A stretch of DNA of 64,000 nucleotides, from NCBI GenBank assembly GCA_934162535.1, contig CAKPJC010000007.1:3773-67772 (forward strand), in the 5' to 3' direction. This document shows positions 655 through 17,996 of this stretch, in pieces. This DNA comes from an uncultured Clostridia bacterium. GTDB taxonomy: Bacteria > Bacillota > Clostridia > TANB77 > CAG-508. Position numbers and translations under genes: made by a program. The notes below the pieces were generated by a model that ran no database searches, was not told where the DNA came from, and saw nothing but the letters and a program-made list of their open reading frames with translations. Positions within the stretch are counted from its first letter, which is position 1. Each line of letters begins with the position of its first letter.

Positions 655-1530
655 TTAGCTCGCTTTCTGGGCAACGAGTAGCCCCTGCTTTTCCAGGATT
701 TCAACCCAGTTGGGGTTGTCACACAAGATTTCGACCTTTTTGTTCTGGTCAGTTGCATATTTAATACACAACTTTGCAAACATAAGTCCTTGTTCGTACT
801 CTTCTTTGCCCATCTCGGAAGTCAAGAAGTCCTGGAATGTTGGCTCAACAATGAGCACATCCTCCTCTTTGGGCTCTTCCTTTCTGATATTTCTATCAGA
901 TTCTGGAGGATTAGTAGATACTGCTAAGCCTCCTTTAGGAATGTCTCCTTGATAGTTCGGTGCAATAATATACACCTTGCTACCTTCCATCTCCTCTACT
1001 TTGTATTGGAGATTATTTACTCTCTTTTCTGCAAGAGTAAGTTCGTTCCTTACCCACAACAGCTGTTGAGAGATATTGAAGTTCTCCTTCTCTATCTGTG
1101 CTCTCTTCTTTCTGGCTTCTTCAATCATGTGATCGATTTCCACCATCTTGCCTTGGTTGTTTCCTTTTTTTTCCATGTAGTCTCCCTCCTGTTTTTGGAG
1201 TTCAACCACTTGCTTTTTTAGCTCGTTTAGCATATTGTATGCATTCGCAAGCTTTCTGCTTTGTTCATTTTCCATTGGATTTACATCCAATGTTTCAGCC
1301 TCTTTCTTCAGGGGTGCTTCTTCAAGCTTCTGCCTGTCCCGTTCAATTTTTTGGGACATTTTTTTCACCTTTCCAAATACCTGCCAGCCCATCGCTCTTG
1401 TGCACATTCTGTCAAATTGTTCTAATGACAGATTGAGCTCATTGGCTTCCTCTTGGATGGTGGTTTCTCTTTGTTCCACTATCCGTTTATAGATAGCCGT
1501 AGCGTTGAACTTACCTCTTTGCTTTTTCAA
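655..1530 (-). CDS. hypothetical protein on a compositionally foreign (~40% GC) cassette; N-terminal HTH-like segment, long E/K/Q coiled-coil region, unknown C-terminal domain
   Basis: 291-aa ORF with a TTG start (1528-1530) and an AAAGGAGGG RBS 6 nt upstream. Amino-acid composition and GC differ clearly from all neighbours: hand counts over 120 nt give about 42%, against about 25% in the flanks. I recognise no family. Confidence 0.7.
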   Translation of the reverse strand: MKKQRGKFNATAIYKRIVEQRETTIQEEANELNLSLEQFDRMCTRAMGWQVFGKVKKMSQKIERDRQKLEEAPLKKEAETLDVNPMENEQSRKLANAYNMLNELKKQVVELQKQEGDYMEKKGNNQGKMVEIDHMIEEARKKRAQIEKENFNISQQLLWVRNELTLAEKRVNNLQYKVEEMEGSKVYIIAPNYQGDIPKGGLAVSTNPPESDRNIRKEEPKEEDVLIVEPTFQDFLTSEMGKEEYEQGLMFAKLCIKYATDQNKKVEILCDNPNWVEILEKQGLLVAQKAS

Positions 1531-1707: not shown

Positions 1708-3186
1708 ATGGAAAATGTAGGCTTATACCAAGATATAGCCAAACGAACTGATGGTGATATTTATATTGGAGTTGTCGGTCCTGTTAGAACTGGTAAATCT
1801 ACCTTTATTAAAAAGTTTATGGATTTACTCGTAATTCCCAATATAGATAATGAGTATAAAAAAGAAAGAGCTAAAGATGAGCTTCCACAAAGTGCTGGAG
1901 GCCGTACCATTATGACGACAGAACCTAAGTTTGTTCCAAATGAGGCTGTAGAAATTACTGTAGATAAAAATTTAAAATTAAGGACTCGATTAGTTGACTG
2001 TGTAGGTTATTTGGTTGACAATGCAATTGGTTATCTTGAAGATGATATGCCAAGAATGGTAAAAACACCTTGGTCAGATGAGGAAATCCCTTTTGAAAAA
2101 GCTGCTGAAATTGGCACAAGAAAAGTTATTGAAGAACATTCTACAATTGGTATTCTTATTACAACTGACGGGTCAATAACTGATATTCCACGAGCTGATT
2201 ATGTCAAGGCTGAGGAACGTGTTGCGTCTGAACTACAAGCACTTAATAAACCTTTCATTATTTTATTAAATTGTGAAAATCCTTTATCTTCTGATACAAG
2301 AGATTTGGCTTCACAGCTTTCTGAAAAATATAATACAAAAGTCATGCCTATTAATTGTGAAAATCTTTCTATTGATGATATAAATGAGATGTTCTCTAAT
2401 CTTTTATTAGAATTTCCTATTGAAGAGATTAGAATAACTTTCCCTAAATGGATTGATTTTCTTGACTTTTCTCATCCTCTAAAATGTAAAATTTTCGAGC
2501 AAATGCAAAGTGCTTTTTCAAATGCTCATGCATTAAAAGATGTTTCAGCGTGTACTTCTTCTCTTGATAATACAGATATTATCTCAGGATGCTTTATTAA
2601 TAATATTATGCTTGGTTCAGGTAGGGTTAATGTTTCTATTCAACTTAAAGATGAATTGTTTTATAATATTCTTTCTGAGATTACTGGTATTGAAATTGCA
2701 AATGAAGGAGATTTGTTCTCTATAATGAGTGAATTGGCTTCTGTAAAAAAGAAGTATGATAAGATTTCATATGCTCTTGAAGAAGTTAAAACTAAAGGTT
2801 ATGGTATTGTGACTCCTTCTATTGATGAGCTTATATTAGAAGAACCTGAAATGGTAAAACAAGGCTCAAGATTTGGTGTAAAACTTCGTGCTACTGCTCC
2901 TTCTATCCATTTGATAAGAGCTAATATTGAAACAGAGGTGTCTCCTATTGTCGGCTCTGAGAAACAGTCTGAAGAGCTTGTTAATTACTTACTTTCTGGA
3001 TTTGAAAATGATCCTACAAGTATTTGGAGTTCTAATATTTTTGGTAAGAGTTTAAATGAACTAGTTAATGAAGGATTACAAACTAAATTAGCAAAAATGC
3101 CAGAAGAAGCTCAAATGAAACTTCAAGAAACCCTTGAACGTATAGTCAATGAGGGCTCTGGTGGATTGATTTGTATCATATTATAA
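1708..3186 (+). CDS. spoIVA: stage IV sporulation protein A (spore-coat morphogenetic ATPase)
   Basis: 492 aa. N-terminus MENVGLYQDIAKRTDGDIYIGVVGPVRTGKSTFIKKFMD carries the SpoIVA Walker A. C-terminus ends ...GSGGLICIIL. AAGGAGG RBS. Confidence 0.95.
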   Translation: MENVGLYQDIAKRTDGDIYIGVVGPVRTGKSTFIKKFMDLLVIPNIDNEYKKERAKDELPQSAGGRTIMTTEPKFVPNEAVEITVDKNLKLRTRLVDCVGYLVDNAIGYLEDDMPRMVKTPWSDEEIPFEKAAEIGTRKVIEEHSTIGILITTDGSITDIPRADYVKAEERVASELQALNKPFIILLNCENPLSSDTRDLASQLSEKYNTKVMPINCENLSIDDINEMFSNLLLEFPIEEIRITFPKWIDFLDFSHPLKCKIFEQMQSAFSNAHALKDVSACTSSLDNTDIISGCFINNIMLGSGRVNVSIQLKDELFYNILSEITGIEIANEGDLFSIMSELASVKKKYDKISYALEEVKTKGYGIVTPSIDELILEEPEMVKQGSRFGVKLRATAPSIHLIRANIETEVSPIVGSEKQSEELVNYLLSGFENDPTSIWSSNIFGKSLNELVNEGLQTKLAKMPEEAQMKLQETLERIVNEGSGGLICIIL

Positions 3187-3194
3187 ATTATAAT

Positions 3195-3236
3195 GAACGA
3201 ACTTTATTCATAATAAAAGTTCGTTCTTCTTTCTTT
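3195..3236 (+). terminator. intrinsic terminator after spoIVA
   Basis: GAACGAACTTT-attcataat-AAAGTTCGTTC forms an 11-bp stem followed by a T-rich tract (ttctttctttc). Confidence 0.55.
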
Positions 3237-3367
3237 CAAAAAAATACCAATATTTTTTTATTTTATATTTTATTTTTCTTTTCATTGTAGTAAAATAATA
3301 TTTAGATTTAAAATTTATCTTGTTTAAATTTTTTATAAAATACCATACTTATATAGGGGGAATAAAA

Positions 3368-5974
3368 ATGTCAAATGAAAAAAAAGAAGATGTCAATATT
3401 GAAAAAATTTATGGACATCTCTGTAAAACTTCAAAAGAGGACTTTATTAAAGAATTCAAAATCAATGAGAAAGGATTATCTAATTCTGATGTTTCAGAAA
3501 GAATTAGAACTTGTGGCTACAATGAAGTAACACAAACCAAATCAAAAAAGTGGTATCATTATTTGCTGAAAAGTCTACTTTCGCCATTTAATAGTATACT
3601 AATTGGAATAGCTTTAGTTCTGTTATATACAGATGTATATCTGCCAGAAAATCCTGATTATGCCAATATAATCGTAATAGTTGTATTAGTAGCAATTAGC
3701 ACATTTCTTGAATTTTTCTCGGAATATAGATCAAACAAAGCTGCTGATAAATTAAAACAACTAGTTTTAACAACTGCTACGGTTGTAAGAAATGGTAAAA
3801 AAGAAAAAGTTCCTTTTAGAGAATTAGTAATTGGAGATACAGTTATTCTTTCAGCAGGTGACATGATTCCAGCAGATTTAAGAATAATAGAATCTAAGGA
3901 TTTATATGTTGGTCAATCATCATTAACAGGCGAGTCTGATGCTATAAAAAAAGTTGTAAATACAGAGTTCAAAGGTGAACTTGATAGTTTATCTGATATT
4001 GATACAATTTGTTTTATGGGAACAAATGTTATAAGTGGTAGTGCTAAAGGTGTTGTTGTTCTAACTTCTGATGATACATATTTTGGTAAAGTTGCAAAAA
4101 CACTAACAACAGGCAAACCTAAAACTGCATTTCAAAAAGGTATAGAAAATATTAGTAAGTTACTTATTAAATGTATGTTAGTTTTAATACCTATTGTTTT
4201 TTTACTAACTGTGTCAAAACATGATATTGTAACATCATTTACATTTGCTGTTGCAATTGCAATTTGTATAACACCACTTCTACTTCCTGTAATATTATCA
4301 AGCACATTGTCTAAAGGTGCTTTACGAATGTCTAAAAAGAAAACTATTGTAAAAAAACTCGACTCAATTCAAAGTTTTGGAGCTATGAATATCTTATGCA
4401 CTGATAAAACAGGAACATTAACAGAAGATAAGATTGTTCTTGAAAAATATCTTGATATTATGGGAAATGAAAATATAAGAGTTTTAGAACAGGCTTTTCT
4501 AAATTCATACTTTCAGACAGGCTTACGTAGTAATATAGATGAAGCAGTAATAAATCGTGGTATTGAAAATGGAATAGATGAGCTTTCTACTAAATATAAA
4601 CTTGTAGATGAGATACCATTTGACTTTTCAAGAAGAAGATTATCTGTTATTGTAAATGATGGAACCCAAACACAATTAATAACAAAAGGAGCTGTTGAAG
4701 AAATTTTAAGTATATCTACACAAGTTAGTTATCAAGGTAAAGTTTCTCCAATAACAAATGAAATAAAAAATAATATAAAAAGTATTGCCAAAGAATTGAA
4801 TAAACAAGGGCTTCGCGTTATAGCAGTTTGTCAAAAAAATAATTTAGATAAATCAACTGGTTTTAATGTATCTGATGAAAAAAATATGATTTTAATTGGA
4901 TTCATCGGATTTCTTGATCCACCAAAAGAATCTGCAAAATCATCAATTGAAATGTTGTATAAAAATGGCATCAGAGTAGTTGTTTTAACAGGTGATAATG
5001 TAGAAGTCACAAAATGTGTATGTGATAAAGTCGGAATAAAGTCTAAAGATATTATAACTGGTATTCAGTTAGATAGACTACCAGATATAGCTGTTAAGAG
5101 AATTGTAAAAAGAAATAATATTTTTGCGAAGTTGTCTCCTATACAAAAAGCTCGTATAGTAAGATTATTAAAAGATTCTGGAAATGTTGTAGGCTACATG
5201 GGAGATGGAATAAATGATAGCCCTTCTCTTGTAAATTCGGATGTTGGAGTATCTGTTGATACTGCTGTAGATATTGCAAAGGAATCTGCTGATATAATAT
5301 TACTTGAAAAAGATTTGCATGTTTTACTTGATGGTGTAAAAGAAGGTAGACACACTTTTGCTAATTTAATGAAATACATCAAATTAGCTGCAAGTTTCAA
5401 TTTTGGAGAGGTTATGTCTGTAATAATTGCAAGTATATTACTTCCATTTTTGCCTGAAACACCTATTCAATTGCTTGTAGAAGGCTTATTATATGATTTC
5501 GGACAATTGACATTACCTTTAGATAATGTTGATGAAGAATATTTGAATAAACCTAAAAAGTTTAATATAAAAAGTTTGAAAAACTTTATGCTATTTATGG
5601 GACCACTTAGTTCTGCTTTTGACTTAATTGTATTTGCACTAGTATGGTTTGTATTTGGAGTTCGTGAAGCTGCAATATTCCAAACAATTTGGTTTACTTA
5701 TAGTGTCGTATCTAATTTGATGGGTATGCATGTTATTAGAACTGCTAAAGTACCTTTTAAACAAAGTCATGCATCAAAAGCTGTATATGCTTCTTCAATA
5801 TTACTAAGCATAGTTGCAATTATTATACCTTATACATTTATAGGTCATTCTATAGGTTTAGTAGGACTTGCACCACAATATTTCTTAATAATAATTGGTG
5901 TTCCAATTCTTTATTGTTTTGTTGCAGGTTTTGCTAAAAAGGTTTATATTAAAAAATTTGGAGAATGGATATAA
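3368..5974 (+). CDS. mgtA: magnesium-translocating P-type ATPase (MgtA/MgtB type)
   Basis: P-type ATPase motifs are present: [28 protein letters not shown]. Overall MgtA-like architecture. I place the start at ATG 3368 (MSNEKKED...) after GGGGGAAT, not at the track's TTG at 3320. Confidence 0.9.
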   Translation: MSNEKKEDVNIEKIYGHLCKTSKEDFIKEFKINEKGLSNSDVSERIRTCGYNEVTQTKSKKWYHYLLKSLLSPFNSILIGIALVLLYTDVYLPENPDYANIIVIVVLVAISTFLEFFSEYRSNKAADKLKQLVLTTATVVRNGKKEKVPFRELVIGDTVILSAGDMIPADLRIIESKDLYVGQSSLTGESDAIKKVVNTEFKGELDSLSDIDTICFMGTNVISGSAKGVVVLTSDDTYFGKVAKTLTTGKPKTAFQKGIENISKLLIKCMLVLIPIVFLLTVSKHDIVTSFTFAVAIAICITPLLLPVILSSTLSKGALRMSKKKTIVKKLDSIQSFGAMNILCTDKTGTLTEDKIVLEKYLDIMGNENIRVLEQAFLNSYFQTGLRSNIDEAVINRGIENGIDELSTKYKLVDEIPFDFSRRRLSVIVNDGTQTQLITKGAVEEILSISTQVSYQGKVSPITNEIKNNIKSIAKELNKQGLRVIAVCQKNNLDKSTGFNVSDEKNMILIGFIGFLDPPKESAKSSIEMLYKNGIRVVVLTGDNVEVTKCVCDKVGIKSKDIITGIQLDRLPDIAVKRIVKRNNIFAKLSPIQKARIVRLLKDSGNVVGYMGDGINDSPSLVNSDVGVSVDTAVDIAKESADIILLEKDLHVLLDGVKEGRHTFANLMKYIKLAASFNFGEVMSVIIASILLPFLPETPIQLLVEGLLYDFGQLTLPLDNVDEEYLNKPKKFNIKSLKNFMLFMGPLSSAFDLIVFALVWFVFGVREAAIFQTIWFTYSVVSNLMGMHVIRTAKVPFKQSHASKAVYASSILLSIVAIIIPYTFIGHSIGLVGLAPQYFLIIIGVPILYCFVAGFAKKVYIKKFGEWI

Positions 5975-6034: not shown

Positions 6035-9000
6035 TTATATCTTACAGTTTTCTTTTCCAATAATATTTTCAAAGACTTTTAGTATTTCCTCAGTTAAATA
6101 TATTGCACCACATGGTTTTAGTTCTTCTCCTATTTTTATTACAACCCCTATATTGTTTTGCTCTCCACCAAAGAATTTTATTGCACCTCTTAATCTGGAT
6201 TTTTGTTCCTCATTTATATTGGTAATATCTAAGGTTAGTAATTTCTTTTTGTTTTCTTCAAAATTTTTTATGTCTCTTGCAACAATTTTGGTTTCTTCAT
6301 CTTCTCGTATGCTTAATCTTCCATCAATAGCGACAATATTTTCTTCTATCAATATATCTTGTGATTTTAAGTATGTTGGTTCAAATACAATAATTTCTGC
6401 TGTTCCATATAAGTCTTCTAGTGTTACAAATGCCATTATTTTATTATTTTTTGTATATTTCTTTTTCACAGATGTTATTATTCCTGCTATTTTCACATCT
6501 TGCCCATCAGTAAATTTTTCGCTTTCTTTTACACTAATGTCCATAACATTTTCACCAATTTCCGAAACTGAGTTTATTTCATCAATTTCATGCATTTGAA
6601 GTGAATTTATAGTTGTCGTAGCAATTATTTGATCTCTTATTTTTTCAAGTGGATGTCCTGAAACATATATTCCAAGCATTTCTTTTTCCATTGATAATAA
6701 TTCTTTTTCACTTAATTCTGGTCTTTCTATGAAATTATATTTTATTTCATTTAGGTTATTTTCTTCTTCTGCCGAACTCCCTAAATCAAACATTGAAACT
6801 TGTCCATTCATTCCTTTTTTATTATAGCTTTGTATCGTGTCTATGATTATTTCAAATGAACTTAATAGTGTTGCTCTTGTTTCTGGGAATTCTGCAAATG
6901 TTCCAGCTTTTACTAAACTTTCAACACATTTTTTGTTTACCGCTTCTCCAGCCATTCTTTCACAAAAGTCTGTAAAACTCGTAAATTTCCCATTTTGCTC
7001 TCTTTCTTTTATTATATTTTCTACAGGCTGTATTCCAACATTTTTTATACTTCCCAGTCCAAAACGTATTTTTCCATTTTCTACTGTAAATTTTGTACTA
7101 CTCATATTTATATCTGGTTTTAAAATTTCTATTCCAAGTTTTTTACACTCATCAATATATGCAGGTACTTTATCAAGGTTTCCTAAAAAGCTATTAAGCA
7201 TTGATGCCATGAATTCTGCTGGATAATATGCTTTTAGATATGCTGTTCTATATGCCACAACTGCATAACATGCAGCATGTGATTTATTAAATGCATATTT
7301 TGCAAATTCTGCCATTTCATCAAATATTTTATTTGCTGACTCTGCATCTATTCCATTTCGTACACAACCTGGTACTATCACATTTCCATTTTCGTCTACT
7401 TGTCCATTTATAAATACTTCTCTTTCTTTTGCCATTACATCAAGTTTCTTTTTTCCCATCGCTCTACGCACTAAATCTGCTCTACCAAGTGAGTATCCTG
7501 CTAAATCTCTTACTATTTGCATTACTTGCTCTTGATATACCATACATCCATATGTTACATTTAGGATTGGTTCAAGACTTGGATGTGTATATTCATTATG
7601 TCCTGGGTTTTGCTTTCCTCTAATATATCTTGGTATTTGATCCATTGGGCCAGGTCTATATAATGAAACTCCAGCTATTATATCTTCTAAACAGTCTGGC
7701 TTTAGTTCTTTCATGAAGTTTGTCATTCCTTGTGATTCAAATTGGAATATCCCACATGATTTTCCTTGTTGCCATAATTTATATACTTTAGGGTCTGCCA
7801 TTTCTTTGTCAAATTCTACATCTATTCCTCTTCCTTGTTTTACTAGGTTTATTGTATCTTGTATTACTGTTAATGTCCTTAATCCTAAAAAGTCCATTTT
7901 TAGAAGTCCAAGTTCTTCAAGTGTTGTCATTATATATTGTGTTGATATTTGATTATCTCTAACATATAGTGGAACATATGAGTCAACTGGTTCTTTTGTT
8001 ATTACTACACCACATGCATGTGTTGATGCCTGTCTTGGCATTCCTTCAAGTCCCTTGGCGATTTCTAATAGTTTATGTATTTCTTCATTTTTTTCATATA
8101 GGTCTTTTAGTTCTTTGTTTTGTTCTAAGGCTTTTTTTATTGTTATGTGTAATTCATTTGGTATCATTTTAGCAAGTTTGTCTGCCTCTGCATATGGAAA
8201 GTCTAATACTCTTGCAACATCTCTTATTACCATTCTTGCCGACATTGTTCCAAATGTAATTATTTGTGATACATGTTCATGTCCATATTTTCTTGATACA
8301 TAGTCTATTACATCTTGTCTATGTTCATAACAAAAGTCAACATCAAAGTCTGGCATGCTTATTCTTTCTGGATTTAAAAATCTCTCAAATAGTAATCCAT
8401 ATTTCATTGGGTCTATGTCTGTAATTTCTATTGCATATGCTAATATTGAACCTGCCCCAGAGCCCCTCCCTGGTCCTACTGGTATATTGTTACTTTTGGC
8501 ATAATGTATAAAATCCCATACTATTAAATAATAGTCTACATATCCCATTTTTTTTATTATTCCTAATTCATATTCGGCTCTTTTTATTATTTCTTCTGAT
8601 GGGTTTTCTCCATATCTCTTTTTTATTCCATCATCACATAATTTTTTTAAGAAATCATAATGTGTTTCAAATTCAGGTGGTACATCATAATTAGGTAATA
8701 TTGTATGTCCAAATTCAAAATTCACATTACATTTGTCTGCAATTTTTACAGTATTTTCTATTGCATCAGGAAATGCTGAAAAATATTCACTCATTTCTTC
8801 TGGTGATTTTACATATAATTCATCTGTTTCAAATTTCATTCTGTCTTCATCACTCATTCTTTTTCCAGTTTGAATACATAATAGTATTTCATGATTATAT
8901 GCATCTTCTTTTTTTAGATAATGAGCATCATTTGTTGCAACTAGTGGTATATCTAGCTTTCTTGCAAGTTGTACTAATTTTTGATTTATTAGAACTTGCT

Positions 9001-9541
9001 CTTTTATTCCATTATTTTGAATTTCTATGTAATAGTCTTCTCCAAATATTTCTTTATACCATAGTGCAATTTCTTCTGCCTTTTCTTCTTGTCCATTTAT
9101 TAATGCTTGGCTTACAGCTCCTGCTAAACAACCACTTAAACAAACTATTCCTTCATGGTATTTTTCTATGACTTCTGCATCTATTCTTGGCTTATAGTAA
9201 TACCCTTCTGTAAATCCTATTGATACTAATTTACATAAGTTTTTGTATCCCTGTGTGTCTTTTGCAAGCAGTATTAGATGATTATATTTGTTATCTATAT
9301 TTGGTTCTTTATTAAATCTTGATCTTTGCGCTACATATACTTCACATCCTATAATTGGCTTTATTCCTTCTTTTTTACACGCTTTATAAAAGTCAATAGC
9401 TCCATACATTACTCCATGGTCTGTTATTGCCATCGCTTTCATTCCTAGCTCTTTTGCTCTTACAGGTAAGTCTTTTATTCTGTTTGCACCATCTAGTAAA
9501 CTAAATTCACTATGTATGTGTAAATGTACAAATTCTGACAT
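6035..9541 (-). CDS. dnaE: DNA polymerase III subunit alpha (DnaE type)
   Basis: 1168 aa. N-terminal PHP domain (MSEFVHLHIHSEFSLLDGA), polymerase core (GLLKMDFLGLRTLT) and an OB-fold region near the C-terminus. Confidence 0.95.
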   Translation of the reverse strand: MSEFVHLHIHSEFSLLDGANRIKDLPVRAKELGMKAMAITDHGVMYGAIDFYKACKKEGIKPIIGCEVYVAQRSRFNKEPNIDNKYNHLILLAKDTQGYKNLCKLVSIGFTEGYYYKPRIDAEVIEKYHEGIVCLSGCLAGAVSQALINGQEEKAEEIALWYKEIFGEDYYIEIQNNGIKEQVLINQKLVQLARKLDIPLVATNDAHYLKKEDAYNHEILLCIQTGKRMSDEDRMKFETDELYVKSPEEMSEYFSAFPDAIENTVKIADKCNVNFEFGHTILPNYDVPPEFETHYDFLKKLCDDGIKKRYGENPSEEIIKRAEYELGIIKKMGYVDYYLIVWDFIHYAKSNNIPVGPGRGSGAGSILAYAIEITDIDPMKYGLLFERFLNPERISMPDFDVDFCYEHRQDVIDYVSRKYGHEHVSQIITFGTMSARMVIRDVARVLDFPYAEADKLAKMIPNELHITIKKALEQNKELKDLYEKNEEIHKLLEIAKGLEGMPRQASTHACGVVITKEPVDSYVPLYVRDNQISTQYIMTTLEELGLLKMDFLGLRTLTVIQDTINLVKQGRGIDVEFDKEMADPKVYKLWQQGKSCGIFQFESQGMTNFMKELKPDCLEDIIAGVSLYRPGPMDQIPRYIRGKQNPGHNEYTHPSLEPILNVTYGCMVYQEQVMQIVRDLAGYSLGRADLVRRAMGKKKLDVMAKEREVFINGQVDENGNVIVPGCVRNGIDAESANKIFDEMAEFAKYAFNKSHAACYAVVAYRTAYLKAYYPAEFMASMLNSFLGNLDKVPAYIDECKKLGIEILKPDINMSSTKFTVENGKIRFGLGSIKNVGIQPVENIIKEREQNGKFTSFTDFCERMAGEAVNKKCVESLVKAGTFAEFPETRATLLSSFEIIIDTIQSYNKKGMNGQVSMFDLGSSAEEENNLNEIKYNFIERPELSEKELLSMEKEMLGIYVSGHPLEKIRDQIIATTTINSLQMHEIDEINSVSEIGENVMDISVKESEKFTDGQDVKIAGIITSVKKKYTKNNKIMAFVTLEDLYGTAEIIVFEPTYLKSQDILIEENIVAIDGRLSIREDEETKIVARDIKNFEENKKKLLTLDITNINEEQKSRLRGAIKFFGGEQNNIGVVIKIGEELKPCGAIYLTEEILKVFENIIGKENCKI

Positions 9542-9624
9542 TATTTTTCTCCTTTTTTTCTTTTGAAGCTATTTTATCACATTTTTTTTGTTTTTAAAAG
9601 GTATTTGTTTATATTATTACAAAC

Positions 9625-9844
9625 AAAAAAAACACCCCGCCTTAGCCGTAAGATGCCTGAATTTTTAAGGACCTGTCTTCGACAGGTGGGTGCCTACTTG
9701 AATACTCATGGGCTTCTTACTACTCGAAAGTGTAAGCTTGCACGCCATACCCAAAGAATTTGGCCCCTCTTTAAACTTGTAGGTTCTAAAAATTCTGTAC
9801 TATACGCACTACGCAGGATATTTTTCTCAGTTACTTAACTTATT
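9625..9844 (-). ncRNA. structured small RNA, best guess 6S RNA (SsrS-like)
   Basis: A roughly 200-nt GC-enriched island sits in AT-rich intergenic DNA. On the minus strand it has TTGCAA-17-TATTAT with a TGc extended -10 (9851-9879) and ends in GCGGGGUG followed by U8. The 5' segment (..CCUGC..CAGAAUUUUU) can pair with the 3' segment (AAAAAUUC(A)G..GCGGG), giving a long imperfect closing helix as in 6S RNA. No RNase P (GAGGAAAGUCC), SRP or tmRNA signatures are present. The track ORF 9563..9838 is the antisense reading of this RNA. Confidence 0.4.
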
Positions 9845-9953
9845 ATAAATATAATAGCACACCTATTTTTTATTTGCAACTATTTTTTTGTTCAAATTAT
9901 TTCAATTTTATATAGTAATACTATTTTATCTCACTATTTTAAATTAATTCTCT

Positions 9954-10562
9954 TTATTTTAGTTCTTTTAATAATTTGACAAATGCCTTCTCTCTGTGAT
10001 TATGTGCTTTTTCATATTCTTCTGCTGGAAGCTCTGACATTGGCACATCATAACCATTAGGAATAAATATTGGAGAATATGTTAGTCCTCCAAGTTTTTT
10101 TGCTTTTTCTGCAACCGTTCCTTGGCATTCTCCTTTTGATACAATCTTTTTTCCATCTTTTAATATGCTTGTTAATACACATACAAATTTTGCTTTTCTT
10201 TCAGTGTCTCCTGTTTTTTTTATATTTGTTAATAACTTTTCTATACATTTTTCTTGTGTTCCATGTTCTCCTGCATATCTAGCAGAATATATACCTGGTT
10301 CTCCATTTAAACAGTCTACACATAGTCCTGCATCATCTGTTGTTATTATATCATATTCTATTTTATTTTTATCGCAAAAATCCTTTACTGCTTTTGCTTT
10401 TATTTCTGAGTTTTCTTCAAATGTTTTTCCATCTTCTTTTATTTCACCATTAAATCCAATGTCTTTTAATGATATTACATCTATATCTTGTTTATGTTCA
10501 TGTATTATTGCTTTTAAGTCTTTTACCTTATTTGCATTTCCTGTACCATATATCATTTTCAT
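9954..10562 (-). CDS. rdgB: non-canonical purine NTP pyrophosphatase (RdgB/HAM1 family, XTP/dITP diphosphatase)
   Basis: 202 aa: MKMIYGTGNANKVKDLK...TTDDAGLCVDCLNGEPGIYSARYAG...HNHREKAF, typical of Ham1/RdgB. Confidence 0.9.
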   Translation of the reverse strand: MKMIYGTGNANKVKDLKAIIHEHKQDIDVISLKDIGFNGEIKEDGKTFEENSEIKAKAVKDFCDKNKIEYDIITTDDAGLCVDCLNGEPGIYSARYAGEHGTQEKCIEKLLTNIKKTGDTERKAKFVCVLTSILKDGKKIVSKGECQGTVAEKAKKLGGLTYSPIFIPNGYDVPMSELPAEEYEKAHNHREKAFVKLLKELK

Positions 10563-10610
10563 TTTTATATTTCATTCCTTCCATATTAGCAATTCTACTT
10601 AGGAAATTTT

Positions 10611-11054
10611 TTATAGTCCCATTATTTCTTTTGCTACTTCATTTATTGTTTTTCCTTCTGCTGATGCTCCCATTTTTGCTTTTGCTTCTTTCATAATTGC
10701 TCCCATGTCTTTCATTGTTGTTGCTCCTATTCCGTCGATTATTTTTTGTACTTCTATTTTTATTTCTTCTCTTGTTAGTTGTTTTGGTAAATATTCTTGT
10801 AATACTTCTATTTCTCTGTTTGTTTGGTTTATTAAATCTTCTCTTCCTGCTTTTTCAAAGTCTTTTAGTGCATCCTTTTTTATTTTCACTTCTTTTGCTA
10901 TTATTTCTAATATTTTTTCATCTTCTACTTGTATTCCTGTATCTTTTTCAATTTGTAATATTCCTGCTCTTACCATTTGAACAGTATTTTTTCTTATCTC
11001 ATCTTTGTTTTTCATAGACTCTTTTAAGTCTTCCATTAATTTTTGTTTTAACAT
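10611..11054 (-). CDS. GatB/YqeY domain-containing protein
   Basis: MLKQKLMEDLKESMKNKDEIRKNTVQMVRAGILQIEKD... matches the YqeY family pattern. I place the start at ATG 11054 after GGAGGGA, not at the longer track ORF that would overlap the upstream gene. Confidence 0.85.
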   Translation of the reverse strand: MLKQKLMEDLKESMKNKDEIRKNTVQMVRAGILQIEKDTGIQVEDEKILEIIAKEVKIKKDALKDFEKAGREDLINQTNREIEVLQEYLPKQLTREEIKIEVQKIIDGIGATTMKDMGAIMKEAKAKMGASAEGKTINEVAKEIMGL

Positions 11055-11104: not shown

Positions 11105-11812
11105 TCAAGTATCAATTTCTAAGATTCCACCATAGTCAATTACATCTTGTCCTTTAAATTCTATTATTTCTACATTTCTTTTTTTTATAAAGTTTCTTAT
11201 TTGTTCATTTTTATCTATTTTGCTTAGGTCTCCAAATATTATAATTTTGTTTCCTATTTTTGATATTGCTCCTCCAATAAATCCATTTCTAGAACTGTAT
11301 CTACCATCTTTTAACAGCTTTATGTCTAGTTGCTCTTTTATATATAGTACATCTATTCCATGTGCTATTAATATTTTGTATAATCCTTTGTCTGTTACTA
11401 TTGCCGATTTTTCATCAATTACTGCTATTGAACAGTTTGTATATCCTTGTGTTGTGTTTATTATTTCATATCCTTGTTTTTCTAATTCACTTTTTATTTT
11501 TGAGTCTGTGTATTTAAAGTTGTGTATTGCTTTTTTCCCTATTATGCATATATTGTATTTTATGTCTTTTGGATATTTTTCTTCAATTAATTCTGCCCCA
11601 TATTCAAGTTCAATTTTTTGAGGTATGTCATATGTTCGGCTTGGTTCTATTATAACTTTATTTCCGATTTTACATGCAAATATGTCTACATGTGATGATA
11701 TTTCTTCATATACTTTTGGATTCTTTTTTATTTCTATTAAATTATATCCTAGTTCTTTTATTTTGTCTTTTTCGATTTGCCTCATTCTTGTATCTATTAA
11801 TATGTTTTTCAT
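11105..11812 (-). CDS. conserved hypothetical protein
   Basis: 235-aa ORF with host-like composition. It sits in an operon-like position upstream of the yqeY-like gene. No family recognised with confidence. Confidence 0.65.
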   Translation of the reverse strand: MKNILIDTRMRQIEKDKIKELGYNLIEIKKNPKVYEEISSHVDIFACKIGNKVIIEPSRTYDIPQKIELEYGAELIEEKYPKDIKYNICIIGKKAIHNFKYTDSKIKSELEKQGYEIINTTQGYTNCSIAVIDEKSAIVTDKGLYKILIAHGIDVLYIKEQLDIKLLKDGRYSSRNGFIGGAISKIGNKIIIFGDLSKIDKNEQIRNFIKKRNVEIIEFKGQDVIDYGGILEIDT

Positions 11813-11965
11813 TTTTCATTCCTTCTTACTACTAGAATTATAGCATTTCTTTTATATCTGTGTCAATCTGAATTTTTTTGTTCAAAACCCTTGTTTTTTT
11901 TGATATTTTGTGTTAAACTAGATATTAGTCAAATTTATTAATTAAATTAGGAGGTGCATTTAATT

Positions 11966-12163
11966 ATGGCAAAATGCGAAGTATGTGAAAAAATAGCTAT
12001 TCATGGAAATAAATTGAGTATAACTCGTTCTCATATAAGTAAAAGAGCTCCAAGAACATGGAAACCAAACTTAAGAACTGTAAAAGCAGATGTAGATGGA
12101 GAAATAAAAAGAATCCATGTATGTGCAAAATGTTTAAAAAATGGAAAAATAAAAAGAGCATAA
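11966..12163 (+). CDS. rpmB: 50S ribosomal protein L28
   Basis: MAKCEVCEKIAIHGNKLSITRSHISKRAPRTWKPNLRTVKADVDGEIKRIHVCAKCLKNGKIKRA. AGGAGGTG RBS before ATG 11966. Confidence 0.9.
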   Translation: MAKCEVCEKIAIHGNKLSITRSHISKRAPRTWKPNLRTVKADVDGEIKRIHVCAKCLKNGKIKRA

Positions 12164-12168
12164 AACAA

Positions 12169-12197
12169 AAAGCGACATCGTCGCTTTGTTTTTTTTG
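12169..12197. terminator. bidirectional intrinsic terminator (rpmB / convergent RNHCP gene)
   Basis: AAAGCGAC-atc-GTCGCTTT is followed by T8 on the plus strand, and the complementary A-run gives a U-run on the minus strand. A second 14-bp AT-rich hairpin follows at 12207-12237. Confidence 0.6.
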
Positions 12198-12254
12198 CCT
12201 TTTTTATATAATAGGAAAGTTATACTTTCCTATTATACAATTTGTTCCTTGTTC

Positions 12255-12569
12255 TTAGTGTTTTGCACTTAGTTTTATTATTTCATCCATATTGTCATCT
12301 TCTGCAATCTTGTTTTTTCTTATTGCACCACATTTCTTGCATTTAAACACTATTACATATCCTTTTTTCGCACTTGTTTCTATTCCAATTGGCTCTAACA
12401 TTCCATGACATGTTTCTGCTCTATCTCCTGGGTTTATATCTAAATGTTTTGAATGTAAACAATATGGACAATGATTTCTACATGTATACCCTAGTTTTGG
12501 TACCTTTTTGCCACAATTTTCACATATAAATTCTTCATCTATTTTGGTAAATTTACTACTTTCTAGCAT
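12255..12569 (-). CDS. RNHCP domain-containing zinc-ribbon protein
   Basis: 104 aa containing the literal motif CRNHCPYCLHSKH plus further CxxC pairs (CENCGKK, CKKCG). Confidence 0.8.
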   Translation of the reverse strand: MLESSKFTKIDEEFICENCGKKVPKLGYTCRNHCPYCLHSKHLDINPGDRAETCHGMLEPIGIETSAKKGYVIVFKCKKCGAIRKNKIAEDDNMDEIIKLSAKH

Positions 12570-14206
12570 TATCCTTTAAAATCTCCTCCTCCAAGGAATT
12601 CTTTTAATAATGAGTTTGATGGGACCATATTTTCTGGTATTGTTTGGAAGTATCTTAATATTTCCATAAGCCTACGTGCTTCTGCATATTCTGGTTCTTC
12701 TTTTGTTATCTCCTCTAATAATGGCATAATCTCATTTTTTAGTACTCCTAGTTCATATATTAGTGATGTATTAAATATGCTGTCTGCTCCTTCTTGGAAT
12801 GGATATATGTTGTTTTGTTCTCCTTTGTTTACATTGTTCCATGTAGCTATTGTTTGTTTTGCAGTATACCCTCTAAATTTATTGTCTCTTACAATTCTTC
12901 TTATAAGTCTTGTATCTGTTGTTGATATTCTATTAAATGAATCCATGTTTAATACTGTTAATGCACTTATATATACTTTGTATTTTTGTTCATGTGGTAT
13001 TTTTTCTGTTAATTTATCATTTAAACAATGTATTCCTTCTATAACTAATACTTCATCTTTAGCAAGTTTTAGTTTTTTGCCATTATATCTTTTTGTTCCC
13101 TCACGGAAGTCAAATTCAGGCATTTCAATTTCTTTTCCTTCTAATAATGCTAATAGATGTTTATTTAATAGGTCTCTGTCTATTGCTTCTAGACATTCAA
13201 AGTCATATTCGCCTTTTTCATTTTTAGGATTATCTTTTCTTTCAACAAAATAATTGTCTACTGATATTGTTACAGGTTTTATTCCATTTAGTCTTAATTG
13301 TATTCCTAGTCTTTGTGCAAATGTTGTTTTTCCAGATGATGATGGTCCTGCAATTAATATCATTTTTACATCTTTTTTCTTTGCTATTTTATCAGCTATT
13401 TGAGATATTTTCTTTTCGTGTAATGCTTCTGAAAGTAATATTAAATCTTTTATTCTATTTTCCTTTACTGCTGTGTTTAGTCTATATACTGTTCCTACAT
13501 TTAGTACTCTATATATTGTTTCATATTCTTCCATAGCCCATAATAGTTTCTTTGTTTCTTTGAATTTTGGTAGTATATTAACATTTTTACTGCTTGGGTA
13601 TCTAAGTAAGAAGCCATTACCATATTTTTGTATATCAAATATTTTTGTTACTCCTGTATGTGTTGCTACAACTTCATAAAAATAGTTATAGTAGTTTCCA
13701 CAATAATACATGTTTATTTCATTGTTGTCTTCAAGGTCAAATTGAAGTCTTCCTTTTGGTGTATTTGTTTTTTTGTAAAATTCTTCTGCTTCTTTTCTAG
13801 TCATCGTTCTTTTTTCTATTTTCATGTCTTTGTCAATGATTTCTTGCATTTTTGCTTTTACTTTTTGCATCATTTCTTCTGTGACTTCCATATTTTCTAT
13901 TGTGCAATACATTGCATTTGATAATTGATAGTCTACCACTATATGTGCTTTTGGATATGCTCTCCAAAATGCCATTCCCATTATGAATGTTAATGTCCTT
14001 CTATATATTTTCATACCTTCTTTTGAGTTTATATCAATTAATTCTATTTTTCCACTTTCTTCTAATGAATAGTCAAGATTTTTATATTCATTGTTAAATT
14101 TTGCTCCTACAACAGGATATTCGCTTTGTGCTATTTGTTTTTTTAATAATTCAGATATTTTTGTATTTTCTTCTGTTTGCATAATCATTTTTTTATTTTT
14201 TTCCAA
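12569..14206 (-). CDS. nucleoside/uridine kinase family protein with N-terminal extension
   Basis: 545 aa. P-loop ILIAGPSSSGKTTFAQRLG lies in the C-terminal half, typical of the PRK/uridine kinase family. TTG start with AAGGAGG 8 nt upstream. Confidence 0.8.
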   Translation of the reverse strand: MEKNKKMIMQTEENTKISELLKKQIAQSEYPVVGAKFNNEYKNLDYSLEESGKIELIDINSKEGMKIYRRTLTFIMGMAFWRAYPKAHIVVDYQLSNAMYCTIENMEVTEEMMQKVKAKMQEIIDKDMKIEKRTMTRKEAEEFYKKTNTPKGRLQFDLEDNNEINMYYCGNYYNYFYEVVATHTGVTKIFDIQKYGNGFLLRYPSSKNVNILPKFKETKKLLWAMEEYETIYRVLNVGTVYRLNTAVKENRIKDLILLSEALHEKKISQIADKIAKKKDVKMILIAGPSSSGKTTFAQRLGIQLRLNGIKPVTISVDNYFVERKDNPKNEKGEYDFECLEAIDRDLLNKHLLALLEGKEIEMPEFDFREGTKRYNGKKLKLAKDEVLVIEGIHCLNDKLTEKIPHEQKYKVYISALTVLNMDSFNRISTTDTRLIRRIVRDNKFRGYTAKQTIATWNNVNKGEQNNIYPFQEGADSIFNTSLIYELGVLKNEIMPLLEEITKEEPEYAEARRLMEILRYFQTIPENMVPSNSLLKEFLGGGDFKG

Positions 14207-14326
14207 GTTCGTTTCCTCCTTATCTCATTTTACTCCCTTATTATACTAATATTAATTATTTTTTTCAAGTTTTATGCATGAATATTTTTATTTTTTATGT
14301 GTATACTTATTTTAGAGGTGATTTGT

Positions 14327-14509
14327 ATGAAGTTAGATAGAGTAAAAAATATTTTAGATAATAAGGAAAAGGTTGATGTTTTTTATGATGAAAGACCCAT
14401 TTGGATTCAGGGAATCAATGATAATATAGCCAAAGTAGGATTTATTGATAATTTTGAAGAACGAGATGTTTTTATTGAAGATTTATATGAGAGAAATCTT
14501 TGGAATTAA
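14327..14509 (+). CDS. H-type small acid-soluble spore protein (SspH family)
   Basis: The 60-aa sequence MKLDRVKNILDNKEKVDVFYDERPIWIQGINDNIAKVGFIDNFEERDVFIEDLYE follows the SspH pattern (..RAKEI..S....V.Y.G.PIYI..V......A.V......E..V....L.E). GAGGTG RBS before ATG 14327. Confidence 0.7.
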   Translation: MKLDRVKNILDNKEKVDVFYDERPIWIQGINDNIAKVGFIDNFEERDVFIEDLYERNLWN

Positions 14510-14512
14510 CCT

Positions 14513-14541
14513 TTGACAAATATGAATTTTCATTATATAAT
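14513..14541 (+). promoter_or_regulatory. consensus sigma-A promoter driving the 14608..15297 ORF
   Basis: Exact TTGACA (14513-14518) - 17 nt - TATAAT (14536-14541). Confidence 0.5.
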
Positions 14542-14607
14542 TGGTTTGTAGTTAAGTTGGACATTGTGCCACATCGTAAAAAGGATTCTTTTTAAGGAGG
14601 GAGCTTT

Positions 14608-15297
14608 ATGGCAACCATTTATAAGATGGAGGTACGCGTTTATGGAGTACGATCTGTTTTGTGTAAACAAATTCCAGCAAGTTCACTTACGGTCAAAGAT
14701 ACATTCCTTCGGATAAAACCGACAACAGCACGGCAAGAAAGTTTCAGGGAAGAACTTATTACCATCATTAAATCTGGTATCCAGGACTTTTATCGTCCTG
14801 TGATGGATCCTTCTGTTGTTTTCAACAGGCTTCAGTATAAAGCTGGACATCCCCCAGCAGTTGGATATTCTTACAACTGGTGGCAAAGAAAAGCAGATAT
14901 GTTCATGCCAGAACATGGTAGTCGTCTTGGAACTAGGAGCGAGTATATCGCATTTCTTGGTTGCTTGATGAAGGAACTTCTGACTAAGGGTTTCTCTCTT
15001 AGTCATGTATGGCACATCATCTGTGATGATTCAAGAAGTCTTGGTCATTATAGAAACTCTGGAGATAATCGGTCTTCATTTGAATCTACTGGTAGCCGTC
15101 AGGTTTGCGAGTTCTATGACTTGGCAAACACAGCAAAAATCCTGTCAGAAAGTTCTGACCAGAAGTCTAACACTTTCTGGTATGCAGGTGGTGCATACTA
15201 TAACTTCAGTTCCATTAACCCATTGACTGATTTTAGCAGAGGTTATTTATCGAACCATGCTAATAGTTCTGCTGTTGGTTGGATTGTACTTTCATGA
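14608..15297 (+). CDS. hypothetical protein on a compositionally foreign (~40% GC) cassette; possibly FGE/C-type-lectin-like or DUF1566-like fold
   Basis: 229-aa ORF, ATG start, AAGGAGGG RBS. Hand GC count is about 40% against about 23% in the adjacent sspH. Composition is W/R/G/S-rich, unlike the host. Weak motif resemblance: SRLGTRSEYIAF, FYDLANTAKIL, WYAGGAYYN. Confidence 0.7.
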   Translation: MATIYKMEVRVYGVRSVLCKQIPASSLTVKDTFLRIKPTTARQESFREELITIIKSGIQDFYRPVMDPSVVFNRLQYKAGHPPAVGYSYNWWQRKADMFMPEHGSRLGTRSEYIAFLGCLMKELLTKGFSLSHVWHIICDDSRSLGHYRNSGDNRSSFESTGSRQVCEFYDLANTAKILSESSDQKSNTFWYAGGAYYNFSSINPLTDFSRGYLSNHANSSAVGWIVLS

Positions 15298-15337
15298 TAC
15301 TTCATGAACACTGATTAGATTAGTTCTAATCACAAAA

Positions 15338-15375
15338 AGAGATAAAGCCTGTTCTCAGGTTTTATCTCTTTTTTA
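15338..15375. terminator. bidirectional intrinsic terminator (foreign ORF / convergent rpsR)
   Basis: AGAGATAAAGCCT-gttctc-AGGTTTTATCTCT forms a 13-bp stem including one G-U pair. T6 follows on the plus strand and an A-run precedes it. Confidence 0.7.
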
Positions 15376-15392
15376 GTCAAATTTACTATATT

Positions 15393-15677
15393 TTAGTCTT
15401 TTGCTGCATATGGTAATATTGCTATATGTCTAGCTCTTTTTACAGCAAGTGTTATGTCTCTTTGATGTTTTGCACATGCGCCAGTTGTTCTTCTTGGTAA
15501 TATTTTACCTTTATCATTTATGAATTTTCTTAATTGTTCAGGATTTTTGTAATCTAAAACAAAGTTTTTGTCATTACATAATACGCATACTTTTTTTCTT
15601 TGTTTTCTGAACTTTGGGTTGTAATCTTCATCATAATTGTTGTTTCTATTATTTCTTTTTTTGTTCTTATCAGCCAT
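15393..15677 (-). CDS. rpsR: 30S ribosomal protein S18
   Basis: ...[63 protein letters not shown]. Start placed at ATG 15677 (MADKNKK) after GGAGGGA. Confidence 0.9.
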
Positions 15678-15697
15678 TTCTAATTCCCTCCTCATTT

Positions 15698-16123
15698 TTA
15701 AAATGGTAAGTCGTCACTTGAAGAAACTTCAAAGTCTGCTCCTCCTGGCATATTTGTGCCAAATGTGTTTTCAAATGCAGTATTGCTTGCAGCTTCTCCT
15801 TCCCTTTTGCTGTCTGCAAAATATGCTTCTTCAGCTACAACTTCTGTAACATAGTGTTTTTGACCTTGGTCATCATCCCATGTTCTTGTTTGTATTCTTC
15901 CTATTATACCTACTTGTTGACCTTTTTTAAAGTATTTGCTACAAAATTCTCCTAACTTACTCCATGCAACTATGTTTATAAAGTCTGCTTGTCTTTCTTC
16001 TCCTTGTCTTACAAATCTTCTGTTTACAGCTAGTGAAAATGATGCAACTACTGTGTTATTTGTTTGTGTATATCTTACCTCTGGGTCTCTTGTTAATCTA
16101 CCCATTAAAATTACTTTGTTCAT
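15698..16123 (-). CDS. ssb: single-stranded DNA-binding protein
   Basis: [35 protein letters not shown]... OB fold with an acidic tail ...SSSDDLPF. Classic rpsF-ssb-rpsR context. Confidence 0.92.
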
Positions 16124-16572: not shown

Positions 16573-16646
<74 letters not shown>

Positions 16647-16674
16647 ATGTACAACATGCTTGGGAAATTTAGTT

Positions 16675-16748
<74 letters not shown>

Positions 16749-17226: not shown

Positions 17227-17970
17227 TTATTTTATATCACTATAGCTTTTGTATTTTCTATATACTATAAATCCTACACATGCAACTGCAACAACTATGA
17301 CTGCTATTGATTTCATTCCTGCATGAGGTATATCTTTTTTTGCTATTGTATTATCTTTTTTTCCACTTTCATTATCAACTTTTACAACTGTGTCATTACC
17401 TTTTGTTGTATCAGCCCCTGGTGTAGGAGTTGGTGTTGGGTCTGGGTCTGGTGTAGGAGTTGGATCTGGAGTAGGTGTTGGTGTTGGATCTGGTGTAAGA
17501 GTCCCTTCAGCAGTTATCGTTATTGATGCATCTTGTGATGTAGCAATTTGCTCTCCATCTGATGCTTCTAATTCTGAAAATACTACTCTTCCAGTTGTGT
17601 CTTTTTCAACTCCTGATTTTACTTTTAATTTTATTGTTCCAAGTTCTTGATCTCCTGTAGCTGAAAATGCAAAATTGAATTTACCGTTTTCAGGATTTAG
17701 CACTCCTGAGCAATCACTTGACGTGATTGCTTCAAAGAAGTCTGTATCATATGTTATTACACCACCAGCAGCATTTACTGCTCCACCATCTGCATTTGTT
17801 ATTCCAGATATTTTTATTGTGAATGTAATATATTCTCCTGGTTTTGCAGATGTTTTATCTGATGTTATTGTTAGGTTTGCAGTTAATTCATCTGCTGCTT
17901 TACACACATTTGGTATAAATCCTATAATCATAATTGATATTATTAAAATACTTACTAATAATTTTTTCAT
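17227..17970 (-). CDS. membrane-anchored cohesin-domain-like surface protein with Pro/Thr/Asp linker
   Basis: Signal peptide (MKKLLVSILIISIMIIGFIPNVCKA). The ~130-aa domain AKPGEYITFTIKISGITNADGGAVNAAGGVITYDTDFFE...GTIKLKVKSG...VVFSELEASDG fits the cohesin pattern. It is followed by the linker TPDPTPTPTPDPTPTPDPDPTPTPTP, a C-terminal TM helix and the tail YRKYKSY. Confidence 0.6.
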   Translation of the reverse strand: MKKLLVSILIISIMIIGFIPNVCKAADELTANLTITSDKTSAKPGEYITFTIKISGITNADGGAVNAAGGVITYDTDFFEAITSSDCSGVLNPENGKFNFAFSATGDQELGTIKLKVKSGVEKDTTGRVVFSELEASDGEQIATSQDASITITAEGTLTPDPTPTPTPDPTPTPDPDPTPTPTPGADTTKGNDTVVKVDNESGKKDNTIAKKDIPHAGMKSIAVIVVAVACVGFIVYRKYKSYSDIK

Positions 17971-17996
17971 TTTCTTTTCCTCTTTCTCTTGTTTTT

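Follow-up and report, generated by a model that had tools for sequence, protein, structure and literature searches.

The question raised by this locus is why a single gene of about 40% GC, with a promoter of its own, lies between sspH and rpsR in a much more AT-rich stretch of genome. The gene, an open reading frame (ORF) encoding 229 amino acids (aa), belongs to 64,000 nt of contig CAKPJC010000007.1 from an uncultured Clostridia bacterium; this whole stretch (64 kb) is referred to as the window. Its neighbours were assigned by Pfam matches to SspH (9e-16) and Ribosomal_S18 (1e-24). An earlier interpretation made without database searches (the sequence-only reading) had proposed a recently acquired, ligand-binding protein of mobile-element origin, resembling the targets of diversity-generating retroelements (DGRs). 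The comparative analysis presented here points to an older history, in which the ORF would be a stand-alone descendant of a DGR variable protein. Its product is quite likely a monocistronically expressed, cytoplasmic binding protein of C-type-lectin fold, with a fixed specificity and a surface shaped by a DGR that has since been lost.

Searches of Pfam, PHROGs, PADLOC and PDB sequences with the window protein gave nothing usable. Homologues were nevertheless numerous: 83 were found among 5.8 billion proteins, all of them unnamed and none carrying a Pfam domain, and a profile search over 1.84 billion cluster representatives placed the family at 786 clusters (50% identity) for E ≤ 1e-3 and 637 for E ≤ 1e-10. 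Pfam analysis of 49 aligned members produced no match above the gathering threshold (a single chance match to DUF3319 was seen), and a profile of the family matched no PDB sequence. The closest match in a scan of GTDB representative genomes is 48% identical to the window protein, and the same identity was calculated for P0003 from locus L001 (100% of the length, E = 2e-62). The family alignment (A1) revealed a conserved body with the motifs DFYRPV.DPS, SRLGT..EY.AFLG and F.DLANT.K, followed by a hypervariable stretch of approximately 30 residues that is framed by FW.AGG and, at the C-terminus, by VGW.VL. All 10 residues that are invariant in the family are present in the window protein, which lacks the N-terminal extension of most relatives. 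Neither Pfam domains nor signal peptides were found in these extensions. Inspection revealed no signal peptide or hydrophobic segment in the window protein or its longer relatives, and on this basis a cytoplasmic location is proposed.

An AlphaFold model generated from the family alignment (pLDDT 90.6, pTM 0.90) was compared with the PDB using Foldseek. The top matches were exclusively proteins of the FGE/C-type-lectin fold, namely CarF, TaqVP (E = 2e-4, probability 1.0), PvdO, TvpA (E = 5e-3), PorK, CalU17, EgtB/OvoA and Mtd (E = 0.1), and SenA was also among the matches. In the viral library BFVD, FGE-like and tail-fibre proteins were recovered, including those of phages. On the strength of this model, the window protein is predicted to adopt the FGE/C-type-lectin fold. 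The sequence-only reading had recommended this very comparison, and its suggestion of kinship with FGE-sulfatase, C-type-lectin and DUF1566 proteins stands at the level of fold; Pfam membership does not, since neither FGE-sulfatase (PF03781) nor DUF1566 was matched by the window protein or by 48 relatives. The three protein motifs that it quoted are present in the translation, and inspection agrees with its statement that a signal peptide is absent.

The link with DGRs comes from the genomic surroundings of the homologues. In L001, a contig of 263 kb, the P0003 gene is situated directly upstream of genes encoding a bAvd protein and a reverse transcriptase (RVT_1); the target gene is present a second time downstream. 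Immediately after the reverse-transcriptase gene there is a 134-nt repeat, with an 84% match to the final 134 nt of each copy. There are 21 mismatches between this template repeat and the 3′ end of P0003, of which 20 affect template adenines, the signature of mutagenic retrohoming. The scan of GTDB representatives yielded 31 loci, all from metagenome-assembled genomes of uncultured gut or rumen Clostridia. Intact DGRs, with full Avd, reverse transcriptase and template repeat, were identified in L001, L009, L028, L032 and L033, and mismatches at template adenines again predominated in L009 (17/17), L028 (19/26), L032 (20/21) and L033 (15/19); locus L035 is cut off by the end of its contig. In the intact loci the variable-protein gene comes first, then bAvd, the reverse-transcriptase gene and the template repeat, and a gene for a large serine recombinase often lies beyond these. 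The guess that the window gene is of DGR-target type is therefore supported by its homologues, which adjoin all three components of such a system.

Other loci represent stages of decay. L012, L023 (with two copies), L024, L029 and L030 contain an intact target gene accompanied by internally deleted fragments of the Avd and reverse-transcriptase genes; in L024, for example, Avd residues 5–55 are fused to reverse-transcriptase residues 209–324. About 20 further loci are solo, with nothing of the system within 10 kb. In 7 loci a large serine recombinase is encoded 0.7–3 kb downstream on the same strand (Table 1), which suggests a small integrative element as the vehicle of the DGR. No member of the family was found in the 2.9 million viral contigs of IMG/VR, and an exact 22-mer from the variable-region scaffold was likewise absent from viral contigs; from the absence of the family in IMG/VR a cellular DGR clade may be inferred, possibly one carried on integrative elements and represented by all stages of decay. 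The phage origin considered in the sequence-only reading finds no support in these data, and its mobile-element origin applies to the relatives only, a serine recombinase not having been detected by tblastn anywhere in the 64-kb window. Family members are found in very different genomic surroundings, and no recurrent partner genes were recognized near them beyond Avd, reverse transcriptase, serine recombinase and AAA_14/DUF4143 ATPases. An rpsF-ssb-rpsR cluster near the L017 copy was considered as a shared context and dismissed as coincidental, as it lies about 5 kb away and is not adjacent.

L001 and L009 each contain tandem targets whose variable regions are 100% identical to each other, while differing from the template repeat at 17–21 adenine positions. 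Such identity is not expected from independent diversification; recent gene conversion or duplication, or assembly collapse, are possible explanations.

In the window, only the target module was recognized. A tblastn search of the 64 kb with the reverse transcriptases and Avd proteins of the clade, which are 75–86% identical among loci, returned only noise. When the cassette was compared with the window by blastn at low stringency, the self match alone was obtained, without a template repeat or flanking direct repeats, and a degenerate pattern allowing the given base or A at each position matched nothing in the window except the variable region itself. When the same type of pattern was applied to metagenome contigs, all 120 of the 120 matches were poly-A runs, which satisfy every code. 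The stop codon is separated from rpsR by 95 nt, and since two hairpins fill most of this gap there is no room for DGR remnants. These results, together with the invariance of the variable region described below, agree with the earlier statement that a functional DGR is not supported here.

The last 44 codons of the window gene can be placed on both repeats of L001, template and variable, in a gap-free alignment. The scaffold codons of the region (FW.AGG, Y, S, PL.D.S and VGW.VL) have been kept, and the positions templated by AAY in the L001 repeat are occupied by A, Y, N, F, S, I, N, G, Y, L and others, as would be expected if the region had formerly undergone diversification. Two of these codons, GCA and TTA, end in A and are not obtainable by adenine mutagenesis of AAY, which indicates that ordinary mutation has acted since diversification.

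A further trait of the family is a 16-nt element, GTAGCACTGNNCACTG, which directly follows the stop codon of every DGR-linked copy, whether intact (7/7) or decayed (6/6), and that of 11 of the 23 solo ones. The bases at its beginning form the complement of the GTGCT that ends the variable region and, judging from its distribution, the element may be considered a candidate target-recognition element. The element is absent from the window copy, where a partial relic occupies its site, and from sister lineage L005; it was not seen beside the template repeat of L001.

Population data show the present state of the former variable region. Among 8 strains, none of its 128 nt (15170–15297) is variable, compared to 19 of the 562 nt in the rest of the gene. 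The only variable-region change in the 15 protein alleles listed, one of which is present on 99 contigs, is T207A, and all other substitutions fall outside. All 17 alleles, those of the sister lineage included, retain the full ORF of 229 aa. Locus L004 carries an identical or near-identical gene between sspH and rpsR, with an identical variable region and flanks of 98–100% identity, and the sister lineage (L005–L007) has the gene at the same site (77–80% identity; flanks 90–97%). The gene was also present in 24 of 24 long contigs read that encode an identical RpsR, none of which showed an empty sspH-rpsR site; two of the six distinct places shown for RpsR-matched contigs are Hadza gut metagenomes.

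Comparison with the sister lineage gave, for the whole gene, a synonymous divergence (dS) of 0.95 and a nonsynonymous divergence (dN) of 0.158 (dN/dS = 0.167). The ratio is practically the same in the variable region (0.18) and in the rest of the gene (0.165), and many of the differences in the former (dS = 0.83) are synonymous third-base changes. The neighbouring genes have dS values of 0.2–1.0 and dN/dS of 0.00–0.03, and the ratio of nonsynonymous to synonymous polymorphism (pN/pS) of the gene within the species is approximately 0.31. The gene is thus older than the split of the two lineages and has diverged along with its neighbourhood, under purifying selection that is weaker than that on housekeeping genes. 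Since the former variable region evolves no differently from the remainder of the protein, diversification will have ended before the lineages separated. The recent acquisition proposed in the sequence-only reading is not supported by these observations: the site is the same in every contig of the species examined and in the sister lineage, and the comparison with relatives that it recommended disclosed no empty site.

The high GC content, taken in that reading as the mark of a foreign donor, is not evidence of one. The ORF has a GC content of 0.407, as had been estimated; that of sspH is 0.257 rather than the estimated 23%, and the whole window averages 0.282. The GC profile runs at 0.41–0.42 across the ORF and at 0.22–0.28 upstream, and the edges of the island coincide with the edges of the ORF. 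The same contrast was observed throughout the family: 43 genes have a median GC content of 0.407 and a median GC at third codon positions (GC3) of 0.38, compared to 0.272 GC for their flanks, and the cognate reverse-transcriptase genes have a GC content of only 0.24–0.26 (GC3 0.13–0.18). In L002 the variable-protein gene reaches 54–56% GC among neighbours, the recombinase included, of 20–28%; in L028 it has 40–43%, beside Avd and reverse-transcriptase genes of 21–27%. A GC content of about 40% is therefore a property of the gene family, found even next to DGR genes of host-like composition, and not evidence of recent transfer into the host genome.

Codon usage was analyzed to define this bias. 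The third positions of variable-protein genes, compared with those of host genes, are poorer in A (A3, 0.26 vs 0.47) and richer in C (C3, 0.167 vs 0.060) and G (G3, 0.211 vs 0.101), with T almost unchanged (T3, 0.361 vs 0.365). At four-fold sites the frequency of A is 0.36 vs 0.54 and that of T 0.37 vs 0.34; A/(A+G) in Lys, Glu and Gln codons is 0.55 vs 0.85, and T/(T+C) in two-fold NNY codons 0.65 vs 0.84. A purely adenine-specific shift, suggested by the unchanged overall T3, was rejected, because T-to-C is also shifted within synonymous families; these within-family figures indicate that the constancy of T3 is partly an artefact of amino acid composition. The effect is a general rise in GC3, strongest on adenine. 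A model of leaky reverse transcription was also discarded, since the 3′-to-5′ gradient of adenine depletion that it predicts was not seen outside the variable region. GC3 is 0.34 in the window copy and 0.42 in the sister copy, and averages 0.32 in solo copies without GTAGCACTGNNCACTG and 0.40 in copies with it (these copies not being phylogenetically independent); such differences fit a slow relaxation after loss of the DGR.

It is conceivable, if rather unlikely, that a DGR-linked, gene-specific process, and not a foreign origin, held the variable-protein genes of this clade at about 40% GC, with marked avoidance of synonymous sense-strand adenines, in genomes of 26–30% GC. The window gene would then be a dated fossil of the slow decay of this signature, as well as a DGR-selected binder that has been domesticated. 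Such a process might be adenine mutagenesis at a low level that extends outside the variable region, selection to keep adenines out of the target transcript, or biased gene conversion among copies. If this were true, the gene would provide a natural example of a DGR-selected binder turned into a cytoplasmic receptor of fixed specificity.

The expression signals of the cassette also appear to be inherited from DGR loci. The exact TTGACA-17-TATAAT promoter described earlier is the sole perfect match (12/12) within 14200–15700, and the 66-nt leader, the ribosome-binding site (RBS) AAGGAGGG and the 229-aa ORF were all found as previously described. Near-consensus promoters located 60–90 nt ahead of the start codon are typical of the family and align with that of the window; the common pattern is a TTTGCA or TTGACA -35 hexamer, often combined with an extended -10 (TGGTATAAT), and a leader of 60–90 nt in which a T-rich tract precedes AAGGAGG. 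The window promoter is homologous to those upstream of variable-protein genes in DGR loci. Since promoter, leader and RBS can all be aligned across the family, the expression signals came along with the target gene. Both hexamers are perfect, and the RBS strong, in the window and in the sister lineage.

Many leaders of the family have, between promoter and RBS, a conserved hairpin with a GAAA loop (GTATTCGAAAGAATGC), observed in L017, L028, L024, L021, L018, L013 and L023 (alignment A3, columns ~135–165). This hairpin, possibly a regulatory RNA feature of transcripts from DGR targets, is lacking in the leaders of the window gene and L005. Folding of the window leader gave no significant structure (z = 0.45), and an Rfam search of 14200–15700, including the leader, returned nothing credible.

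The history favoured by these results would be as follows. In relatives, adenine-specific mutagenic retrohoming rewrites the last ~44 codons, that is, the variable part of a protein of FGE/C-type-lectin fold. In the window lineage, only the target module with its strong promoter, RBS and ORF would be left within the 64 kb. Its former variable region would have become fixed and then drifted by ordinary point mutation under purifying selection, one variant having been retained because it was useful, as a constitutively expressed ligand binder of fixed specificity. Several points weigh against this history. A DGR is able to reach targets that lie over 100 kb from it (Wu et al. 2018, PMC5758913), so that a reverse transcriptase and template repeat could lie beyond the 64 kb. 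Assemblies are consensus sequences, in which low-frequency variants of the variable region within a sample would be missed. The dN/dS of 0.17 is about 5–10 times that of the neighbouring housekeeping genes, and constraint is therefore only moderate. Finally, this history does not account for a GC3 that has stayed high in the gene.

The first of these points leads to the possibility that the gene is a live remote target, still occasionally diversified by a DGR in another part of the genome, outside the window. Chromosomal DGRs are known to have such targets (PMC5758913), the 11 solo family members that retain the 3′ cis element could be such targets, and the variable-region scaffold of the window copy (FW.AGG ... 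VGW.VL) is intact; but a variable region that is the least variable part of its gene in the 8 strains, near-invariant in the 15 protein alleles and diverged from the sister lineage in an ordinary, largely synonymous manner, and that has lost GTAGCACTGNNCACTG, makes this very unlikely. A recently acquired foreign cassette (genomic islet) from a phage or a donor of higher GC content would explain the sharp edges of the 0.407 island within flanks of 0.28, the promoter belonging to the gene itself, the serine recombinases next to relatives in 7 loci and the varied contexts of the family. It is nonetheless an improbable origin for a gene that occupies the same site in the sister lineage, with a dS inside the range of its flanks and no empty site in any of the 24 contigs read. 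Moreover, the GC excess extends to family members beside reverse-transcriptase genes of 24–26% GC and recombinase genes of 20–28%, no family member was found in the viral contigs and no recombinase in the window.

Loss of the DGR might instead have left a functionless remnant, a pseudogene in waiting. The dN/dS is indeed far above the 0.01–0.03 of the neighbours, pN/pS is comparatively high, the protein lacks the N-terminal extension of most relatives and decay has affected the cis element. The ORF, however, is still intact in 17/17 alleles despite roughly one substitution per synonymous site, dN/dS is well under 1 in the variable region and elsewhere, the consensus promoter and strong RBS persist in both lineages, and all 10 invariant residues are retained; a remnant is accordingly given as little probability as a live remote target. 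Least probable of all, to the point of being scarcely credible, is an enzyme of the FGE/EgtB/OvoA type instead of a binding protein. The Foldseek matches to CarF, PvdO, EgtB, OvoA, SenA and CalU17 are in its favour, set against the absence of FGE-sulfatase or any other Pfam match in 49 members, the empty profile search of PDB sequences, and the hypervariable C-terminal segment, which marks a binding site diversified by a DGR. A fixed, DGR-derived binding protein remains the preferred interpretation of the window gene.

The best characterized counterparts of such a protein are TaqVP of Thermus aquaticus (5vf4), TvpA of Treponema denticola (2y3c) and Mtd of Bordetella phage BPP-1 (1yu0). They have in common with the window protein the fold and a C-terminal variable segment within a conserved scaffold, and the homologues of the window protein are, like them, diversified adenine-specifically by Avd, reverse transcriptase and template repeat. 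Sequence similarity is undetectable, with 8–15% identity in structural alignments and no hidden Markov model match. In contrast to these proteins, the window protein is much smaller, consisting of a single domain with a short N-terminal beta-hairpin, its gene has no machinery within 64 kb, and its variable region is invariant in the population. Non-adjacent or remote DGR targets, including short ones composed of the FGE domain only, have been described (Wu et al. 2018, NAR, PMC5758913); the window gene resembles them in lying apart from any reverse transcriptase and in encoding essentially an FGE/C-type-lectin domain alone. Remote targets are defined by a match to the template repeat with A-to-N differences only (PMC5758913), whereas the window variable region displays drift of a non-DGR type, no variation and loss of the family cis element. 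Metagenome surveys have also placed some DGRs in an inactive class (Roux et al. 2021, Nat Commun, PMC8144416). Their variable-region loci similarly lack enrichment of non-synonymous changes, but the reverse transcriptase and template repeat still lie beside the target; in the 64-kb window they are absent, and it is the target alone that has been conserved across species.

DGR variable proteins of C-type-lectin fold, remote targets and inactive DGRs are thus well known (PMC5758913, PMC8144416). What is new is an unannotated family of C-type-lectin-fold targets, comprising approximately 800 clusters from uncultured gut Clostridia, a target that persists as a conserved and fixed gene after the loss of its retroelement and whose relatives form a decay series, and the compositional signature. 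No new mechanism is involved, and the window feature taken alone is the gene of a hypothetical protein whose ancestry has been explained. To our knowledge, DGRs have mostly been studied as working machines, and the fate of their targets after loss of the machine is rarely documented. In this family, intact, decayed and bare-target stages occur side by side, and the window gene represents a clean end state, with a single fixed variant, purifying selection, synteny across species and a consensus promoter. It is a candidate for asking which ligand the DGR had tuned it to bind. It also calls for caution, because a sharp single-gene GC island in an AT-rich genome need not mean recent horizontal transfer.

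The positions of the features mentioned above, and of others in the window, are summarized in Table 1.

Table 1. Features of the window and of loci carrying homologues of the variable-protein gene.
Sequence	Feature	Position	Strand	Remarks
Window	Promoter, sigma-70/sigma-A type, TTGACA-17-TATAAT	14513–14541	+	Score 12/12; conserved in sister lineage L005
Window	-35 hexamer TTGACA	14513–14518	+	
Window	-10 hexamer TATAAT	14536–14541	+	
Window	Leader, 66 nt from -10 hexamer to start codon	14542–14607	+	Includes RBS
Window	RBS	14594–14601	+	6 nt before ATG at 14608
Window	229-aa ORF, solo variable-protein homologue	14608–15297	+	Predicted FGE/C-type-lectin fold; signal peptide absent
Window	Fossil variable region (last 44 codons)	15163–15294	+	Gap-free codon alignment to L001 template/variable repeats
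Window	Site of GTAGCACTGNNCACTG in DGR-linked copies	15298–15311	+	Partial relic ACACTGA; equivalent extends to 15314 (15298–15314)
Window	8-bp hairpin of 3′ untranslated region, TGATTAGA / TCTAATCA	15312–15332	+	Retained in sister lineage
Window	Intrinsic terminator	15334–15379	.	18-bp stem (15334–15373), A-run and T-run flanks; pairing kept in L005
Window	291-aa ORF	655–1530	-	
Window	Two tandem tRNA-Gly(TCC) genes	16573–16748	-	
Window	Genes of 1232-aa and 247-aa proteins	17227–21695	-	
L001	Tandem variable regions	8646–8779, 11315–11448		
L001	GTAGCACTGNNCACTG	8781–8800		
L002	Variable-protein gene	8001–8774		
L002	Serine recombinase	9461–11017		
L009	Tandem variable regions	6379–6518, 7508–7647		
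L012	Serine recombinase	11468–12424		
L024	Serine recombinase	2823–4373		
L028	Variable-protein gene	9644–10576		
L028	GTAGCACTGNNCACTG	10577–10595		
L028	Serine recombinase	13078–14452		
L029	Serine recombinase	13850–15532		
L031	Serine recombinase	12585–13079		
L032	Serine recombinase	3184–4128		

The -35 hexamer of the cassette starts 3 nt past the stop codon of sspH and no terminator intervenes (14507–14518), so that read-through from sspH is possible; forespore-specific transcription of sspH could in this way run into the variable-protein gene. At the other end, the terminator described in the sequence-only reading as having a 13-bp stem proved to have one of 18 bp, preceded by a separate 8-bp hairpin; folding of the two together gave -31.5 kcal/mol (z = -7.2). 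An A-run upstream of the stem and a T-run downstream allow it to end transcripts of the convergent rpsF-ssb-rpsR operon as well; the terminator probably works in both directions, is probably shared with this operon, and need not form part of the cassette.

Several other features of the window were noted. The other cassette of about 40% GC singled out earlier consists of an ORF encoding a coiled-coil-like protein of 291 aa (GC3 ~0.48), divergent from spoIVA. It had no Pfam or PADLOC match, and its homologues were found only in the host species and in one other lineage (75% identity); this orphan is restricted to its lineage and has no relationship to the variable-protein family. Upstream of the rpsF-ssb-rpsR operon there are two tRNA-Gly(TCC) genes in tandem. 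A 1232-aa leucine-rich-repeat protein with a C-terminal dockerin-like segment is encoded directly ahead of a 247-aa cohesin-domain protein, which has a Pro/Thr-rich linker and a C-terminal membrane anchor; by their domain composition, the two look like a cohesin-dockerin pair for surface display.

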